Shown: positions 12,492-57,765 of the stretch, piece by piece
Numbering within the stretch: the stretch's first letter is position 1
Layout of the letters: the number at the start of each line of letters is the position of its first letter
Virus record (IMG/VR): IMGVR_UViG_3300045988_158233
Length of the DNA stretch: 64,000 nucleotides
Strand: one strand, 5' to 3'
Source of the DNA: a virus
Taxonomy: Duplodnaviria > Heunggongvirae > Uroviricota > Caudoviricetes
Program-made: the position numbers and the translations under genes
Notes under the pieces: model-generated
What the model was told of the DNA's origin: nothing
Database searches by the model: none
The model's input: the letters and a program-made list of their open reading frames with translations, nothing else

Positions 12492-12566
12492 GATGGTGTA
12501 GCTCAGCGGTAGAGCAGTTGGCTGTTAACCAACTGGTCGGTGGTTCGAATCCACCCACCATCGCCA
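12492..12566 (+). tRNA. tRNA-Asn (GTT)
   Basis: Cloverleaf by eye: acceptor GATGGTG/CACCATC, anticodon loop CTGTTAA, T-loop TTCGAAT, 3' GCCA. Confidence 0.85.
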
Positions 12567-12571
12567 ATTTA

Positions 12572-12658
12572 GGAGAGTTAGTCCGTAGAGGTAGCGGGGT
12601 AGACTGTAAATCTACTGTCATTGCGACTCGGGTGGTTCGACTCCATCACTCCCCACCA
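12572..12658 (+). tRNA. tRNA-Tyr (GTA), class II
   Basis: Anticodon stem GTAGA/TCTAC with loop CTGTAAA, long variable arm, T-loop TTCGACT, 3' ACCA; one A-C mismatch in acceptor stem, D-arm imperfect. Confidence 0.65.
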
Positions 12659-12662
12659 AATT

Positions 12663-12738
12663 GCCGGTTTAGCTCAGTTGGTAGAGCGCCTGCCTTGTAA
12701 GCAGGATGTCAGCGGTTCGAGTCCGTTAACCGGCACCA
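12663..12738 (+). tRNA. tRNA-Thr (TGT)
   Basis: Acceptor GCCGGTT/AACCGGC, anticodon stem CCTGC/GCAGG with loop CTTGTAA, T-loop TTCGAGT, 3' ACCA. Confidence 0.85.
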
Positions 12739-12962
12739 ATACAACGATAAGATCATTACGGTTAATCGTCGTTCATGTGCACAATGACTGGTCGAAAGGT
12801 AGTGATCTTACCGTTGTGGTGGATTCGCAGACTGATGCGATAGCTTTCTTGGATGTTAGGGAAATGCGGCCGCAAATCTTCCCTTTCGCGAGCGGTGATC
12901 GTCCGTAGTCCTAATTGGCTGCACCGTATGCCGGAGATTCAGTACCGGCTATCACAACGGCC

Positions 12963-13049
12963 GGAGAGTAGGGAGCATGGTGCTCAAGCGGTCTTGAAAA
13001 CCGTCCCATTGCGCAAGCGATGATGGTTCGATTCCATTACTCTCCGCCA
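12963..13049 (+). tRNA. tRNA-Ser (TGA), class II
   Basis: Acceptor GGAGAGT/ACTCTCC perfect, anticodon loop CTTGAAA, long variable arm, T-loop TTCGATT, 3' GCCA. Confidence 0.75.
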
Positions 13050-39765: not shown

Positions 39766-42125
39766 ATGATAAGCATCGTAAAACGTAACGGCCAAACAGA
39801 GCCGTTATCCGAAGAAAAATACAACCGCGTCGTAATGTATGGCGTAGAAGGCATTCGTGGTGTAAGCGCATCCGCTGTAGCAATGGGAGCTGCGGCCAGC
39901 ATTTTTGATGGGATTACCACCAGCCAGTTGCATGAGGCTTTGGTTAAATCTGCCGCTGATTTGATCTCACCAGAAGCACCAAATTACTCACAGGTGGCTG
40001 CCCGCCTGAACATTTTTAAAATCCGCAAAGATGCCTTCGGTCGTTACGACTATCCGAACTTCTACCAACACATTGTCAAGAACGTTAACAAGGGCGTTTA
40101 TGACAAGGATTTGCTGACACATTATTCGTTTGAAGAGATCGAAGAACTCGGCAATTACATTAAGCCGAAACGTGACGATCTTTTTGGCTATGCAGCTACG
40201 GTGCAGTTGCAAAGCAAATACCTCGTTCAAAACCGTGTTACTGGTGAGATTCATGAGGGGCCGCAACATATCTATATGCTGGTAGGCATGTGTCTGTTCC
40301 AGAATTGGGAAGACGACTGCGCTGGCAAAACACGTATGGAGATGGTCAAAGGTTTCTATGACGTTACAAGTACGTTCAAACTGTCTCTGCCCACACCAAT
40401 CATGGCCGGCGTCCGTACTCCAACCCGTCAGTTCTCCAGTTGTGTGCTGATTGAGTCTGGCGATAGTCTGAAAGGGATTAGTGCAGCTTCAGCCGCAATT
40501 ATCGACTACGTTTCACGTCGTGCTGGAATTGGTATTGGTTTTGGCCGTATCCGTGCGCTGGGCAGCGAGATCCGCAATGGTGAAGCCACCCATACTGGAG
40601 TTATTCCATTCCTGAAGCATTTCCAGACGGCTGTTAAATCTTGTTCGCAAGGTGGTGTTCGTGGTGGCGCAGCAACAGCGTTTTACCCGATCTGGCATCT
40701 TGAAGTTGAAAGTCTGCTGGTGGTGAAAAATAACCGTGGTATTGATGAAAACCGCGTTCGCCATCTTGATTACGGCGTCATGAGTAACCGTCTAATGTAC
40801 CGTCGACTCGTCAGAAGCGAGAACATCACTCTGTTCAGCCCGCATGATGTGCCTGATATGTACGAAGCCTTCTTCACAGACCAGGAGCTGTTTGAAAAGC
40901 TGTACCATAAATACGAAGCCGATGATTCAATTCGCAAGAAGTCAGTACCTGCCATTGAGCTGTTCTCATCTCTGATGCAGGAACGAGCGTCCACGGGCCG
41001 AATTTATATTGCGAACGTCGATCATATTAATGAGCATGGCGCTTTCATTCCTGCTCTTGCACCTGTTCGCCAGTCAAACCTGTGTATGGAGATCACCCTA
41101 CCCACCCGTCCACTGGCATTTACCGACGACCCGAACGGTGAGATCGCGCTATGCACTTTATCCGCTTTTAACCTCGGAGCCATCCGTTCACTGGAGTCTC
41201 TTAAAGAGGTGGCGTTCTATGCCGTTGCTGCACTGGATTCGTTACTGGATTATCAAGACTATCCGATGGAGGCAGGCCGAGTTGCCCGCCACTCAAAGTT
41301 GCTTATCCGATGGAGGCAGCCGAAGTGCCTGCCAAAGCTCGTCGTAGCTTGGGAATTGGTGTAACCAACTTTGCTTATTACCTGGCAAAGAATGGCGTTC
41401 GTTATTCTGATACCGCTGGCAATAAACTGGTGCATGAAACGTTCGAAGCTATCCAGTATTACCTTCTTGATGCCAGCTGCCGACTTGCTGAAGCAAAAGG
41501 TGAGTGTGACTGGTTTGAGCAGACCAAATACGCAATTGGTCAGTTGCCGATCGACCATTACCGTTCTTCATTAGACGAAAGTGGCGAAACCAACTTTGAG
41601 TTAAAGATGCCGTGGGAAGAACTGCGTGAACGTATTGCAAAATACGGCCTTCGCAACTCCACTCTGACGGCACAAATGCCATGCGAGACTTCCAGCCAGA
41701 TCACTAATTCCACCAACGGCATCGAACCGCCTCGTGGCCCGGTGTCAGTGAAATCTTCTAAGGACGGCATCGTCAAGATGGTCGTGCCTGAGTTTGAAAA
41801 ACTGAAGGAACAGTATGAATACCTGTGGGATATGCCGGACAACCGCGGCTATCTGACAAAGGTGGCGATCATCCAGAAGTTCTTTGACCAGGCTATTTCG
41901 GCCAATACCAACTATGACCCTTCTCGCTTTGAAGGCGATAAAGTCCCAATGATGACGCTACTGTCAGATTTGCTTCTCGCCTACAAGATGGGAGTTAAAA
42001 CGCTTTACTACCACAACACCAGAGATGGTGCAGGAAAGCGTGATGACGACGAACCGCAGAATCCACTGGCGCAAGCTGTAGCCGTCGAGCCAGAAGATGA
42101 GTGCGACGGAGCCTGCAAAATCTGA
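39766..42125 (+). pseudogene. nrdA: class Ia ribonucleotide reductase alpha subunit, reading frame interrupted near 41276..41319
   Basis: Two ORFs (39766..41364 and 41310..42125) together align to full-length NrdA; 44-nt segment flanked by 16-bp direct repeats causes the frame change. Confidence 0.8.
41276..41319 (+). repeat. 44-nt insert within nrdA bounded by 16-bp direct repeat
   Basis: tatccgatggaggcag at 41260..41275 and again at 41304..41319; intervening unique 28 nt gccgagttgcccgccactcaaagttgct. Confidence 0.8.
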
Positions 42126-42130
42126 CATAT

Positions 42131-42149
42131 GGTGGGGGATATCCCCACC
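42131..42149 (+). terminator. GC-rich hairpin after nrdA
   Basis: ggtgggggatatccccacc followed by T-rich tract. Confidence 0.5.
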
Positions 42150-42187
42150 TTCTCTTTGATTTGTAAGCCTTGTTTAAACACATAAGA

Positions 42188-42200
42188 TAACAACTTGTTT
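42188..42200. promoter_or_regulatory. motif A palindrome (1 mismatch) upstream of nrdB
   Basis: taacaacttgttt; a second half-site ttgtttaaac at 42170. Confidence 0.35.
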
Positions 42201-42231
42201 AAACGCACCAAAAAAGAAAAAGGAAAAACAC

Positions 42232-43374
42232 ATGTCATATTCAACGTTCCGTTTGGGTGCTAATGATGCAACCAAAGAGCCTATGTTCCTCGGACAATCT
42301 GTCAACGTGGCACGTTACGATCAGCAAAAATACCGTGATTTTGAAAAGTTGATTGAACGTCAATTGTCTTTCTTCTGGCGGCCGGAAGAAGTTGATATTT
42401 CGAGCGATCGTATCGACTTCAACACGAAGCTGCGGGACCACGAACGTCACATTTTTCTGAGCAATCTCCGTTATCAAACGTTACTCGATTCAGTTCAGGG
42501 ACGTAGTCCAAATGCAACGCTGCTGCCGCTTATCTCTATTCCTGAACTGGAAACGTGGGTTGAAACGTGGTCTTTCTCTGAGACTATCCATAGCCGCAGC
42601 TACACCCACATTATTCGTGGCATGGTGGACGATCCGAGCATTGTTTTTGACGGTATTGTTACGGATGAAGAAATCATCAACCGAGCGATCAGTATCTCTG
42701 CTGAATATGACAGGCTTTATGGGATGACCTGCGAGCGCCAGTCGTTAGGTGAGAAGGAGTTTGAACGTCTGTACGTAAATGAATATGGCTGGGAGCCATA
42801 CCCTTTGCACCGTCAGCTTTTCCGCACGTTGGTGTCCATTAATGCGCTTGAGGCGATCCGTTTCTATGTAAGTTTTGCATGTACGTTTGCCTTTGGCGAA
42901 CGGAAGTTGCTTGAGGGTAACACCAAAATTATGCGCTTTATTGCCCGTGATGAAGCTCTGCATTGCGAAGGAACTGAACGCATGATCCGCTTCATGCGTA
43001 CCGGTCGCGAAGGTTTATTGTGGAAAGAGATTGCTGCTGATGAAGAAAACGTCATTTACGACACCATGAAATCAGTCGCCGAACAAGAAATGAACTGGGC
43101 AGACTATCTCTTCAAAGACGGTTCGATGATTGGTTTAAACGCGGATATTCTCAAAACCTATGTAAAATACCGCACCAATCTGGCTATGAATCGTCTTGGC
43201 CTGAAGGCTTTATTTCCAGAGGTTACCACCGATCCGCTGGTCTGGATGAACAAGTGGTTGTTAACCGACACACTGCAAATTGCACCACAAGAGGCAGAGC
43301 AAAGCACATATCTGGTAGGTCAGATCGATTCTACCGTGGATAAGGCTTCTCTAAGCCAGTTTGCTGACCTGTAA
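42232..43374 (+). CDS. nrdB: class Ia ribonucleotide reductase beta subunit
   Basis: 380 aa; diiron/tyrosyl-radical region ...[15 protein letters not shown]... and [11 protein letters not shown]. Confidence 0.85.
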
Positions 43375-43451
43375 ACCGATACAAAGCATTATGTGGCCTG
43401 GCAACGCTGGGCCACAATGGATCACAAGAATTAAGAAGGAACAAAACTAGC

Positions 43452-44321
43452 ATGAACTTTACCAAACTGACTGACCACCTGAAACTTGCCACCGATCGAC
43501 TCATTGGATTTAAGCCAGAACCATATGAGTTGCATGAAGGTCATGGTGTAGCTACTGAAAGTATTTACAAGATGGTCGATCAGTTTCATGAACTCTTCCA
43601 GCATCCGAGACGCGTTATGCCGACACCAGAGCTGCTTCGTCTCCGTGCAAGCCTGATTCATGAAGAAGCTGTAGTGGAAGGTATTCCAGCCGCAATGAAT
43701 GGGGATATTGAGCAACTGCTGGATGCAATGGCCGACTTTTTATACGTTGGTGTTGGTACGATGGTCGCCATCAAAGGTGGTATTTCTACCGGCATGACCT
43801 ATTACACGCAGGAACAGAGCATTGATCGCTTTATGCAGACAATTTTTGTGCCCGGTAACACTGTTTTCGATGATATGGCAATGCCATTTCAGGAAGCTCG
43901 TGAGGCGTCATGTATGCTCGAAGAGCTGGCAGATAAACTTGAGAACAAGACTGTTAAGGATTCTGAGCTGATTCAGGAACTGCGCCGTGTCATGAACAAA
44001 ATCTATGTGGCGTGCATGATGACCTATCGACTGGCTGATTTCCTCGGTATCAATGTAGTCGAGCTGGTTGGCGAAATTCATCGGTCTAACATGACAAAAT
44101 TATGGCCTGCTGATGTCGAGGAACGTCGCCAGGCTGTGGCCAACTGCAAATACGACTCTTCAGACCTGGGATTTCGCCATGCTGATGGTACCGATAAGAT
44201 GATCGGTTTTCGAATTTCCGATGGAAAGATTCTGAAGTCTCCAACCTATAGTGATGTCGATTTATCCTCCTTTGTTGAGCAAGCTAAAGCCTCAGCAATG
44301 TACGGAATGATCAAAAAATAA
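43452..44321 (+). CDS. hypothetical protein (possibly MazG-like NTP pyrophosphohydrolase)
   Basis: Acidic helical motifs HEEAVVEG...GDIEQLLDAMADFLY; location within nucleotide-metabolism cluster. Confidence 0.35.
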   Translation: MNFTKLTDHLKLATDRLIGFKPEPYELHEGHGVATESIYKMVDQFHELFQHPRRVMPTPELLRLRASLIHEEAVVEGIPAAMNGDIEQLLDAMADFLYVGVGTMVAIKGGISTGMTYYTQEQSIDRFMQTIFVPGNTVFDDMAMPFQEAREASCMLEELADKLENKTVKDSELIQELRRVMNKIYVACMMTYRLADFLGINVVELVGEIHRSNMTKLWPADVEERRQAVANCKYDSSDLGFRHADGTDKMIGFRISDGKILKSPTYSDVDLSSFVEQAKASAMYGMIKK

Positions 44322-44464
44322 TTGTAGGTAGTTATCTATCTATGTATATTGTGTTAGCGCGTTAAATTCCTGAAACAACTATTCGTTTTGGTGGCCTATG
44401 GCCACCATTTTTTTATCTATCTGGCCTTGTTCCCTCAATAAATGTAAACTCACGTAATGAATAA

Positions 44465-45595
44465 GTGGTTACTTATCTTTGTGAGGTTTTTGTGTCACTC
44501 CTTTTGAATCGTGAGCATACGAACGGTCAGGTAACAAACGCATCGTATGCAAAAGTTATTGAGACGGTGCTTAAAAGCGGCGTGCAGGCTGATGATCGCA
44601 CAGGCACTGGTACTTTAAGCACCTGCTACGTTCCCTCTTACTACATGCTTACTGGTGGGACTGTGCCGCTTATTTCTGGAAAGGCGGTAAATCTTAAGCC
44701 ACTGCTTGTCGAACTTGAGTGGTATCTGAAAGGCACGGGCAACATCCAATTTCTCAAGGATAACGGCGTTAAGATTTGGGATGCATGGGCCGATGAGAAT
44801 GGCGATTTGGGGCCAGTTTACGGTAAGCAGTGGCGTCGATGGGAAGATACCCGCATCGTGAGCCATAGTGAATATCTGAGCAAGATCGCTACTTTCCGTG
44901 AACGCGGGTACAAAGTCGAGGGATACCTAGGTATCAGTGAAGATCGCGTAGTGCTGTCCCGTGAAATCGATCAGCTACAGCGTATTGTCGATACACTGCG
45001 CACGAACCCTACCGATCGTCGCATCATGCTTAACGCATGGAACGTAGGCGAGCTTGAGGATATGAAACTGCCACCTTGCCACTTTGTCTTCTCTTTGTGG
45101 AGTCGTGAGCTTGATTTTGAAACCCGTTTAACGATGGCAACTGACATTGGTCTTCAACACAGTCGCCTCGGTTACGAGTCTATCTACACCAAGATGCTAT
45201 ACGATCTGGAGATGGACGGCAGTGTTACTGAAGCTGAACTGGATGAACTTGGAATCCCCAAACGCATCCTCAACTCCTGCCTCGTACAGCGTAGCGTAGA
45301 CACTTTTGTTGGTATGCCATTCAATATTGCTGGCTATGGCATTCTCACTCATTTTCTCGCGAAGATTACGGGTCACATGGCCGGTGCATTTGTGCATTTT
45401 GGCTTTGACGTGCATTTGTACAATAACCACATGGAAAGTGTGCGTGAGCTAATGCAACGACAGGCTCCAGAGCATTCAGATCCGGTCGTTATATTCCCTA
45501 ATGAATGGTCTGAGCTGGATGATTTCAAATGGGACGAGATTCTTATTCTTGGCTATGCCCCTCTACCGTGGATCAAGGTTCCAGTGGCGGTGTGA
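44465..45595 (+). CDS. thyA: thymidylate synthase
   Basis: DRTGTGTLS and catalytic LPPCHF motifs; no in-frame ATG, start GTG 44465 or GTG 44492. Confidence 0.8.
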   Translation: MVTYLCEVFVSLLLNREHTNGQVTNASYAKVIETVLKSGVQADDRTGTGTLSTCYVPSYYMLTGGTVPLISGKAVNLKPLLVELEWYLKGTGNIQFLKDNGVKIWDAWADENGDLGPVYGKQWRRWEDTRIVSHSEYLSKIATFRERGYKVEGYLGISEDRVVLSREIDQLQRIVDTLRTNPTDRRIMLNAWNVGELEDMKLPPCHFVFSLWSRELDFETRLTMATDIGLQHSRLGYESIYTKMLYDLEMDGSVTEAELDELGIPKRILNSCLVQRSVDTFVGMPFNIAGYGILTHFLAKITGHMAGAFVHFGFDVHLYNNHMESVRELMQRQAPEHSDPVVIFPNEWSELDDFKWDEILILGYAPLPWIKVPVAV

Positions 45596-45596
45596 T

Positions 45597-46010
45597 ATGG
45601 CAAGAGGTATGTATGTCTTATGCGAAATTGAAGGTGTGCTGGCAAATACCAGCCATCGTAAATCTGTATCTGACTCGGATGCAGGCCAATTCATTGCCGG
45701 TGATGAACTCATTTTCCCCACCAGCCGTATGTTGCGTGGTTTTGCTCGCTCAGGGGCTGAAGTGGTGCTTATCAGTAGCCGCTCTGAAACTCTTGAAGCG
45801 CCCACTAAACGATGGCTGAAAGATTTTGGTGTTGATTACGACTGGCTTCATCTCGTACCGAATAGCACTAGTTATGAGAAGCATATTAAGCGCACATTAG
45901 CGGAGCATAAAGGCGATCTGCTTATCGCTGCGCTGGTGCACGATCCTCGACTCCGTGCCGCTTTAGCTGACTCTCATCATAGACCGGTCATCTATGAGGT
46001 GAGCAAATGA
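45597..46010 (+). CDS. hypothetical protein
   Basis: 138 aa from ATG overlapping thyA stop (TGATATG). Confidence 0.4.
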   Translation: MARGMYVLCEIEGVLANTSHRKSVSDSDAGQFIAGDELIFPTSRMLRGFARSGAEVVLISSRSETLEAPTKRWLKDFGVDYDWLHLVPNSTSYEKHIKRTLAEHKGDLLIAALVHDPRLRAALADSHHRPVIYEVSK

Positions 46011-46483
46011 AGATGATAGCTGCTGTTGGCCGTAACTATGAGATCGGCATAGCGAACGAACTGCCCTGGCGTTGTTCTACCGATCTGAAGCTATTTAAGA
46101 GACTCACCAAAAACGCCACTGTCGTTATGGGGCGTAAAACGATGGAAAGTCTCAAACGCCCTCTTCCAGAGCGTCATAACCTCGTTTTGACGCGCTCTCA
46201 TGGCTTTGTACCAAATGGATTCTACCCTGCTGGTGTGGATGATGTGTTGCGATTACCAGAGCCTGTGTGGGTGATTGGCGGGAAACAAATTTACTCGCTA
46301 TTCATGCCGCATGTTGAAGAGATTTGGCTCTCCCACATCGACGTTGATGTGCCAAACGCCGATGCATTCTTCCCGGCAAGCATGATGCGTAATTTAGGCT
46401 TTGTGCCTGTTGAAACAGCTTATACCCAACGAGCCAGCGAGGAAGAGCCTGGCTTTTCGCAGATCGTATACAGAAGGTCGTAA
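46007..46483 (+). CDS. dihydrofolate reductase
   Basis: MIAAVGRNYEIGIANELPW, VVMGRKTMESL, VIGGKQIY. Confidence 0.8.
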   Translation: MKMIAAVGRNYEIGIANELPWRCSTDLKLFKRLTKNATVVMGRKTMESLKRPLPERHNLVLTRSHGFVPNGFYPAGVDDVLRLPEPVWVIGGKQIYSLFMPHVEEIWLSHIDVDVPNADAFFPASMMRNLGFVPVETAYTQRASEEEPGFSQIVYRRS

Positions 46484-50339: not shown

Positions 50340-50860
50340 TAGATAAGTACAAACTATTCATAAAGTGAATTGTAAGTGCTAAGATCTGATAGTTTCCAGT
50401 CGTAGACTGGAGGCTCGATCTGATGGGTGGGGGTAAGCGTCACTGGCGTCAGGTTTAAAAAAGCTCACTACCAGCGTAGAACCGGTGCCGTTTAGGTGTC
50501 GGGGAAGGGGGAACCAAAGTGAGCAGAGACAAGGGTCACTTTATGATTGTCGAGTCTGGGGTGTTTCGAGAGGTTGAATCCAGTACTCCCCTTCATAAAG
50601 TGTGGGAAGATCTCGGTTCTGGGGTGCTGTCATCCATAACTTCCCAAGTCTAAGCTGGCAGTAGACTTAGACCATAGCTTTTCAGGTTATGAAACGACCA
50701 GGTTGGTGAGGAATTTTATACTCACCTCCCTGGGAGAGTATTACCTGAAAAGACAACCTCTCACTTCGTTCGAGGTGAACTTCACTCACTTCGTTCGTTC
50801 AGTTCAGGTTTATAAAAACCTGTTCTGGGAAGTAATTTGTTTATTTTAATAATTATTAAC
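50340..50860 (+). other. structured non-coding region (candidate ncRNA or secondary origin)
   Basis: ~520 bp without ORF of 60 aa or more; several stem-loops, direct repeat cacttcgttcg x2, ends in alternating Pu-Py palindromes cacgcgtgtgcgcacgcg. Confidence 0.3.
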
Positions 50861-50921
50861 ACGCACGCGTGTGCGCACGCGCGAGGAAAAAATCGGCGCG
50901 GCGCTTGATTCAGGAGTTTAT

Positions 50922-51515
50922 ATGACGACGAAGACACCAGCCCGATCGCAAGCAAAAACTCGCAAAAAAGACAAAAACAAAAATTCTCCCCGCACCAATC
51001 CCACAACGCCTGTCGTAGAGTTCAACCCCCAGCTTAAAACCGTGAAAATCTTTAGTGATGGCTCTTGCCTCAAAAATCCGGGTGGCCCGGGCGGTTACGG
51101 TATCGTTCTCCAGTATCGTGGTGAGGAACGCGAGTTCTCAGATGGTTTTCATAGCACCACCAATAACCGCATGGAGATGATGGGGGCACTTATCGGGCTG
51201 GAGCGTTTGAAATATCCATGCAACGTTATTTTGTACTCTGATAGCCAGTATCTGAAAAACGGCATGACACAGTGGATGAAATGGTGGAAACGTAATGGAT
51301 GGATGACTTCTGATAAAAAACCGGTAAAGAATGTTGATCTGTGGAAACGTCTGGATGAGGCCGCAAGTCGACATAATGTTCGCTGGAAGTGGGTTAAAGG
51401 TCACGCCGGGCATCGTGAAAATGAAATATGTGATCGACTCGCGAAGATCGCAGCTTTTTCCGCAGCCGATACGCCTCACAAGAAAGACATTGGTTTTATT
51501 TACAACAAGTGGTAA
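50922..51515 (+). CDS. rnhA: ribonuclease HI
   Basis: [43 protein letters not shown] match RNase HI catalytic motifs; basic N-terminal extension. Confidence 0.8.
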
Positions 51516-57627: not shown

Positions 57628-57765
57628 GCGCTACAAATCCTTCTGCATGAATAAATAAAGGCCATAACTTATGTCCTTAAATAAATTGTTTTCTACCTTT
57701 TCTTATTTGTGAAAATAAACCAGCACTTGGTAGTGCTTATGTAACAGCAAAGAAGAGAAAAACAC

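Follow-up and report, generated by a model that had tools for sequence, protein, structure and literature searches.

A 44-nt insertion that splits nrdA in an SSU5-like Escherichia coli phage-plasmid is probably a scar of long-read assembly

Results

The nrdA locus

The DNA analysed here, a stretch of 64,000 nt that we call the window, carries at the place of nrdA two overlapping open reading frames of 532 and 271 aa, followed by nrdB (Table 1). The break between them coincides with an exact 16-nt direct repeat, TATCCGATGGAGGCAG, the two copies of which are spaced by a filler of 28 nt, GCCGAGTTGCCCGCCACTCAAAGTTGCT, so that the whole insertion amounts to 44 nt. Apart from these two copies, which were read directly from the sequence, the window has no match to the 16-mer at up to two mismatches; shuffled controls gave 0.01 matches on average, and at least two matches in none of 100 shuffles. 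A first-pass annotation of this DNA had described both the exact repeat and the split into two frames, and its coordinates for the two were reproduced without a third copy of the repeat coming to light. Its further claim, that removal of 44 nt gives back one NrdA frame, held as well: with the 44 nt taken out, a single ORF of 771 aa is obtained (...DYQDYPMEAAEVPAKARRSLGIGV...), which is a class Ia NrdA, in agreement with the annotation of the relatives' genes as class 1a nrdA, and which equals the nrdA of relatives in length (2316 nt).

The break lies near residue 500 of E. coli NrdA, past the equivalent of C462 and ahead of Y730/Y731, and the product of ORF2 aligns with residues 502-760 of the E. 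coli protein (E = 3.6e-98). As the native ATG is located inside the duplicated 16-mer, ORF1 and ORF2 jointly retain every residue of NrdA, with an overlap of M-E-A. The stop codon of ORF1 comes 52 nt after this ATG, and the sequence preceding ORF2 contains no Shine-Dalgarno motif.

Table 1. Features of the split nrdA locus, in window coordinates
Feature	Position	Strand	Description
ORF1	39766..41364	+	532 aa; NrdA residues 1 to ~503; start same as that of the relatives' annotated nrdA
ORF1 content			ATP-cone, equivalents of N437/C439/E441 and C462; then 29 out-of-frame codons and TAA at 41362
Repeat copy 1, TATCCGATGGAGGCAG	41260..41275	+	Codons Y-P-M-E-A plus G
Filler, GCCGAGTTGCCCGCCACTCAAAGTTGCT	41276..41303	+	Degenerate copy of 41320-41349; ends in TTGCT
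Repeat copy 2	41304..41319	+	Native nrdA resumes here
ORF2	41310..42125	+	271 aa, C-terminal part of NrdA; begins at the native Met of YPMEA
ORF2 residues	41310..42125	+	Y730/Y731 and the C-terminal Cys pair present
nrdB	42232..43374	+	Intact; partner subunit undamaged

Identity of the element and its nearest relatives

Judged by its sequence, the window is an SSU5/pLF82 ("Cyrano")-like E. coli phage-plasmid. Its nrdA is 98-99% identical to the genes of the Escherichia phages Cyrano (pLF82; 99.3%), CMS-2020a and PhiR41_1, and matches SSU5 with 71% identity; Cyrano itself has been described as an SSU5-like phage-plasmid (PMC9928086). The closest records are eight plasmids of 108,475 bp from chicken E. 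coli, including DG341-1, DG342-2, DG343-1 and DG351-2, and the 64-kb window is collinear with such a 108,475-bp plasmid at 99.97% identity. Over the full 64 kb, 18 substitutions and the 44-nt insertion separate the window from DG341-1, with zero further indels. Eleven of the 18 substitutions are intergenic, their positions having been mapped by hand onto the annotation of the sibling plasmid, and the overall pattern looks like natural divergence in a well-polished sequence. Three of the 18 are gathered within 62 nt (57674-57735); mapped onto the sibling, these positions fall into the space between two annotated genes.

Several other features of the element may be recorded here. Four clustered tRNA genes (Asn-GTT, Tyr-GTA, Thr-TGT, Ser-TGA) occupy 12492-13049. 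The nucleotide-metabolism block runs in the order nrdA-nrdB-MazG-like-thyX-HAD-dfrA51, the last of these genes, which encodes a trimethoprim-resistant dihydrofolate reductase, being placed at ~46007-46483 by mapping from the sibling annotation; dfrA50 and dfrA51 in phage-plasmids are reportedly the subject of one paper. Toward the end of the window (~61.9-64 kb, again mapped from the sibling), two host-like housekeeping genes, apbC and a complete metG (methionine-tRNA ligase), lie beside a HumD/UmuD-like gene. In DG341-1, rnhA is called 'frameshifted' by RefSeq. The corresponding stretch of the window, 50855-51515, shows no difference from DG341-1, and the rnhA of the window is an intact ORF of 214 aa that starts with GTG at 50871 and includes the RNase HI domain. 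The N-terminal extension of this gene varies by small indels among relatives (matched spans of 760-764 nt for a query of 761 nt), and what lies behind the 'frameshift' may be a matter of annotation, or variability of the leader, and not a dead gene.

The insertion in relatives

The 44-nt insertion is absent from four phage records, in which nrdA spans 2316 nt as against 2360 nt in the window, and the alignment shows a clean gap of 44 nt with one copy of the 16-mer. A 261-nt probe spanning the insertion site matched 200 E. coli plasmids and 172 plasmids of PLSDB, and a match of at least 99% to the probe was found in 0 of the 200 and 0 of the 172; the matches listed consisted of two pieces spanning 217 nt in place of the 261 nt of the probe and hence lacked the insert. 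The SbcC-like ATPase gene beside nrdA led to 6,971 blocks in a gene-position index, and in the ten further assemblies taken from these, NrdA has 771 aa or 748 aa. All 15 of the site-spanning loci that were fetched are uninterrupted and read CAAGAC-TATCCGATGGAGGCAG-C. SSU5 likewise lacks the 44 nt, as do SSU5-like phages of Klebsiella (70-71% identity), with nrdA in the middle of the record. No public gene call matches the product of ORF1, and the junction patterns of the split allele were not found in viral, genome or metagenome collections. The comparison with related elements that the first-pass annotation had proposed thus finds nrdA intact in every relative examined and the insert not conserved: the insertion is a singleton, private to this one sequence.

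Origin of the filler

The nucleotides between the two repeat copies had initially been described as 28 and unique. The count is correct, but the filler is not unique, being a degenerate copy of the bases 3' of the second repeat copy. Its first 15 nt agree with the 15 nt that follow this copy at 12 positions, with an offset of 1 and with the mismatches to the native sequence mostly at wobble-like positions; carried on without gaps at the same offset, the agreement is 15/27 (p ~1e-3, against random 28-mers and shuffles), and a gapped alignment to CCGAAGTGCCTGCCAAAGCTCGTCGTAGCT takes in the entire filler. The insertion therefore has the structure of a tandem duplication which is exact over 16 nt and badly degraded beyond. 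Copies made by replication slippage are exact; a degraded copy between perfect flanks resembles rather the poorly resolved consensus at the end of a contig.

A donor for the filler was found neither within the window, with three mismatches tolerated, nor in 5,426 complete E. coli genomes, nor in viral and genome contig collections. Metagenome contigs gave no match either, which is a weak negative as this collection is incomplete and also missed the JGI contig described below. A divergent nrdA allele was considered as donor and rejected: the likeness ends after 15 nt, and the translation does not run on into the conserved RRSLGIGV. The same applies to a template nearby on either strand, the 60 nt upstream and both reverse complements matching at chance level (p = 0.11-0.46), and to two inverted repeats that touch the filler (I4 and I9), which are no better than many chance pairs in the gene. 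The 28-nt filler may bear some resemblance to the E. coli CRISPR repeat.

A related contig with its end at this position

A JGI contig of the same sublineage, Ga0169822_100181 (3300014921; 61,144 nt), is 100% identical to positions 41301-45125 of the window (3.8 kb), closer than DG341-1, and terminates at the same base. The 32 nt at its end, CTGCACGTGTTCCGTTACGGTATTACCAAGCT (positions 1-32 of the contig), reach a score of 16.5 against the native upstream sequence, which 0 of 2000 shuffles attained. The same 32 nt match the ONT ligation adapter AATGTACTTCGTTCAGTTACGTATTGCT, as given in the Porechop_ABI preprint, at 19 of 24 positions, and 0 of 500 shuffles did as well. Where the contig departs from the native sequence, most of the departures shift it toward the adapter, as read by eye from the alignments. 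The end, similar to both the native sequence and the adapter and departing from the former mostly toward the latter, is thus a blend of the two, as is expected of an untrimmed adapter that was partly polished. The native nrdA sequence at 41229-41252 is itself weakly adapter-like (p ~0.03). A metagenome contig deposited in public thus retains adapter sequence, either untrimmed or polished in part.

Both in the window and in this contig, TATCCG is immediately preceded by GCT, the 3' end of the adapter, while all relatives have GAC at this place. The filler of the window is as long as the adapter (28 nt) and shares its last five bases, TTGCT. Over its entire length it agrees with the adapter at 10 of 28 positions (p ~0.1-0.15), so that it is the length and the last 5 nt that tie the window to the adapter; together they are suggestive of an adapter origin of the filler. 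Matches of the filler to other adapters (PacBio, Illumina, other ONT) were not significant.

The JGI contig came out of a look-up with the ORF2 product, which selects contigs that start near the ATG and returned three contigs, and the coincidence in the position of its end is therefore in part a product of selection. Two short Logan contigs (L008 and L009) beginning at the ATG or 2 nt ahead of it were set aside as no evidence, since the look-up picks edge-partial genes.

Discussion

What, then, are the 44 nucleotides that interrupt nrdA in this sequence? We consider them to be the scar of a contig end or circularisation join in a long-read assembly, the true nrdA being ordinary and intact, and put the probability of this explanation at about 0.65. 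Errors at the ends and circularisation points of long-read assemblies are common. In the present case, a contig would have begun at a nanopore read that starts with TATCCG (41304) and had retained its 28-nt ligation adapter, and the opposite end of the contig would have overrun 41304 by 16 nt. On joining of the two ends, by circularisation or merging, overlap and adapter would have been left untrimmed. Short-read polishing could subsequently have brought the adapter's 5' half closer to the native sequence downstream, with the TTGCT at its 3' end unchanged, and a later rotation or merging of the record would have made the scar internal. The insert is private, its filler is a degenerate copy of adjacent sequence, and a contig of the same lineage ends at this very place in adapter-like sequence; the order of the assembly steps, and the derivation of the window and the JGI contig from one read set or from two similar ones, are what we infer from this. 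Counter to an artefact, the window is free of other errors of the long-read type, without a single other indel in 64 kb against its nearest relative. Moreover, as the junction lies inside the window and not at a contig end, an assembly scar needs the rotation or merge after joining. In practice, the nrdA of this element should be treated as intact, or at most as a private pseudogene. Of the three options that the first-pass annotation had left standing, artefact and inactivating insertion both survive, with the artefact favoured, and recoding finds no support.

The inactivating insertion is the main alternative, if a less likely one: the 44 nt would then be a real and very recent private mutation, either an imperfect tandem duplication or filler DNA from break repair, which frameshifted nrdA and turned it into a pseudogene. 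The high quality of the sequence, clean of further indels over the 64 kb, agrees with this, as do the natural look of the 18 substitutions, 11 of them intergenic in the sibling annotation, and the position of the insert in the middle of the contig. Furthermore, nrdA is accessory in a phage-plasmid, and its loss would be tolerable because the host's nrdAB provides dNTPs. However, duplications by slippage are exact, whereas 28 of the 44 nt are here just ~55-70% like their template, and the collections searched hold no donor for the filler. Nor does a private mutation account for the end of the JGI contig, which lies at this very base and is adapter-like, and all relatives examined have kept the gene intact.

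A very improbable explanation is that the 16-mer marks a physical end of the DNA, be it a cos-like cohesive terminus of 16 nt or the cut of a site-specific nuclease, at which reads would start and stop, and that end-repaired termini were joined, by which the 16-mer was duplicated. Filled-in cohesive ends would indeed yield such a duplication, and two assemblies are discontinuous at the identical base, one of them with adapter abutting TATCCG. However, the site falls within a conserved enzyme gene, in what the annotation identifies as a replication and nucleotide-metabolism region, and nrdA stands uninterrupted in mid-record in SSU5 as in every other SSU5-like phage record. For Cyrano, PMC9928086 gives no terminus data. 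The assemblies of the window and of the JGI contig may well share reads, which would remove the coincidence of the shared base and make a physical end unnecessary.

That the 44 nt are real and NrdA nevertheless stays functional, by low-level ribosome hopping or by -1 slippage, helped by the identity of the two 16-mers, or else by assembly of the two ORF products, has a similarly slim chance in our estimate; it would be a recoding or split-enzyme state seen just after it arose. The first two routes amount to programmed recoding, in which either a 44-nt hop between the matching codons of the repeats or a -1 slip, for instance at TCA AAG (41293-41298), would restore full-length NrdA; the hop would give the junction peptide …DYQDYPMEAAEVPAK… and the slip an insertion of 15 aa. 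Several features invite this idea. The take-off and landing codons match (TAT/CCG/ATG/GAG/GCA, 44 nt apart), the gap nearly equals the 50-nt coding gap of T4 gene 60 in length, the -1 frame reads open through the insert into the native frame, and each repeat contains a GGAGG. The features of the gene 60 cassette, as listed by Manning and Atkins (10.1101/2022.08.31.505936), include linkage to mobA and a Shine-Dalgarno-like sequence that precedes the landing codon by a few nucleotides, where the gap is AU-rich toward its 3' end. Here, in contrast, GGAGG occurs only inside the repeats, and the 28-nt gap has 57% G+C and no Shine-Dalgarno sequence near its 3' end. The codon after GCA is a common GGC, neither a stop nor a hungry codon, and ORF1 continues for 29 codons to its TAA; the first-pass annotation had already noted that no stop follows the first repeat, which counts against a classical bypass. 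The RNA fold, which it had suggested checking, is unremarkable: 41240-41340 folds with a minimum free energy of -29.8 kcal/mol, where shuffles average -27.5 (z = -0.67) and 49 of 200 of them reach the same stability. The peptide upstream of the take-off site is ordinary conserved NrdA sequence, and no extra gene or mobA-type element is present at the site. As for -1 frameshifting, there is no X XXY YYZ heptamer, and the weak single-site A-AAG (41295-41298) is accompanied neither by a stimulatory structure nor by conservation. The absence of the insert from all relatives, including near-identical ones, excludes a conserved recoding device, and programmed recoding of any kind seems exceedingly improbable.

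We regard it as just as far-fetched that ORF1 and ORF2 each yield a polypeptide of their own and that the two combine into an active large subunit in the manner of NrdA-a and NrdA-b of the Aeromonas phage Aeh1, a precedent for functional split NrdA (PMC3045599). The two ORFs do jointly keep the entire NrdA, but the allele is a singleton without conservation, ORF2 has no Shine-Dalgarno sequence and opens 52 nt ahead of the ORF1 stop, the tail of ORF1 consists of 29 accidental out-of-frame residues, and the split is located near E. coli residue 500 instead of between C439 and C462. In Aeh1, a mobE homing-endonuclease gene divides nrdA between the equivalents of these two cysteines, an arrangement that is fixed in this phage, and specific tails are essential, their deletion leading to a ~2000-fold loss of activity (PMC3045599). 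No homing-endonuclease gene is inserted at the split described here, which contains only the 44 nt and so does not conform to genes in pieces. Even taken together, recoding and the split enzyme retain barely more than a trace of probability. Should reads prove the 44 nt real, and should there be an NrdA peptide across the junction, they would afford a rare view of the birth of a bypass or split enzyme de novo; no evidence points there. The case rather gives reason for caution, in that even a neat 'take-off/landing' repeat within a conserved gene can stem from assembly.

How does the locus compare with known systems? With NrdA of Aeh1 it shares a class Ia nrdA in two ORFs with all catalytic residues kept, and it differs in that a mobE gene and evolved tails are found there, whereas here a gene-less stretch of 44 nt occurs in a single sequence. 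T4 gene 60 has a gap of similar length (50 as against 44 nt) and, likewise, identical take-off and landing codons; unlike that different gene, the present one is without a stop or hungry codon, a structure, a suitably placed Shine-Dalgarno sequence, conservation and a link to mobA. Pseudogenes made by small tandem duplications resemble it in the flanking direct repeat, the lost frame, the intact relatives and the accessory nature of the gene, but their unit is exact throughout, while here it is exact for 16 nt only and the other 28 nt are degenerate. Join errors of long-read assemblies, finally, have in common with it a short exact duplication, junk of adapter length with the 3' bases of the adapter, and an insert confined to one assembly. 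From these, too, it departs in two respects, as the junk in the window is mostly unrecognisable as adapter (10/28) and the join is internal.
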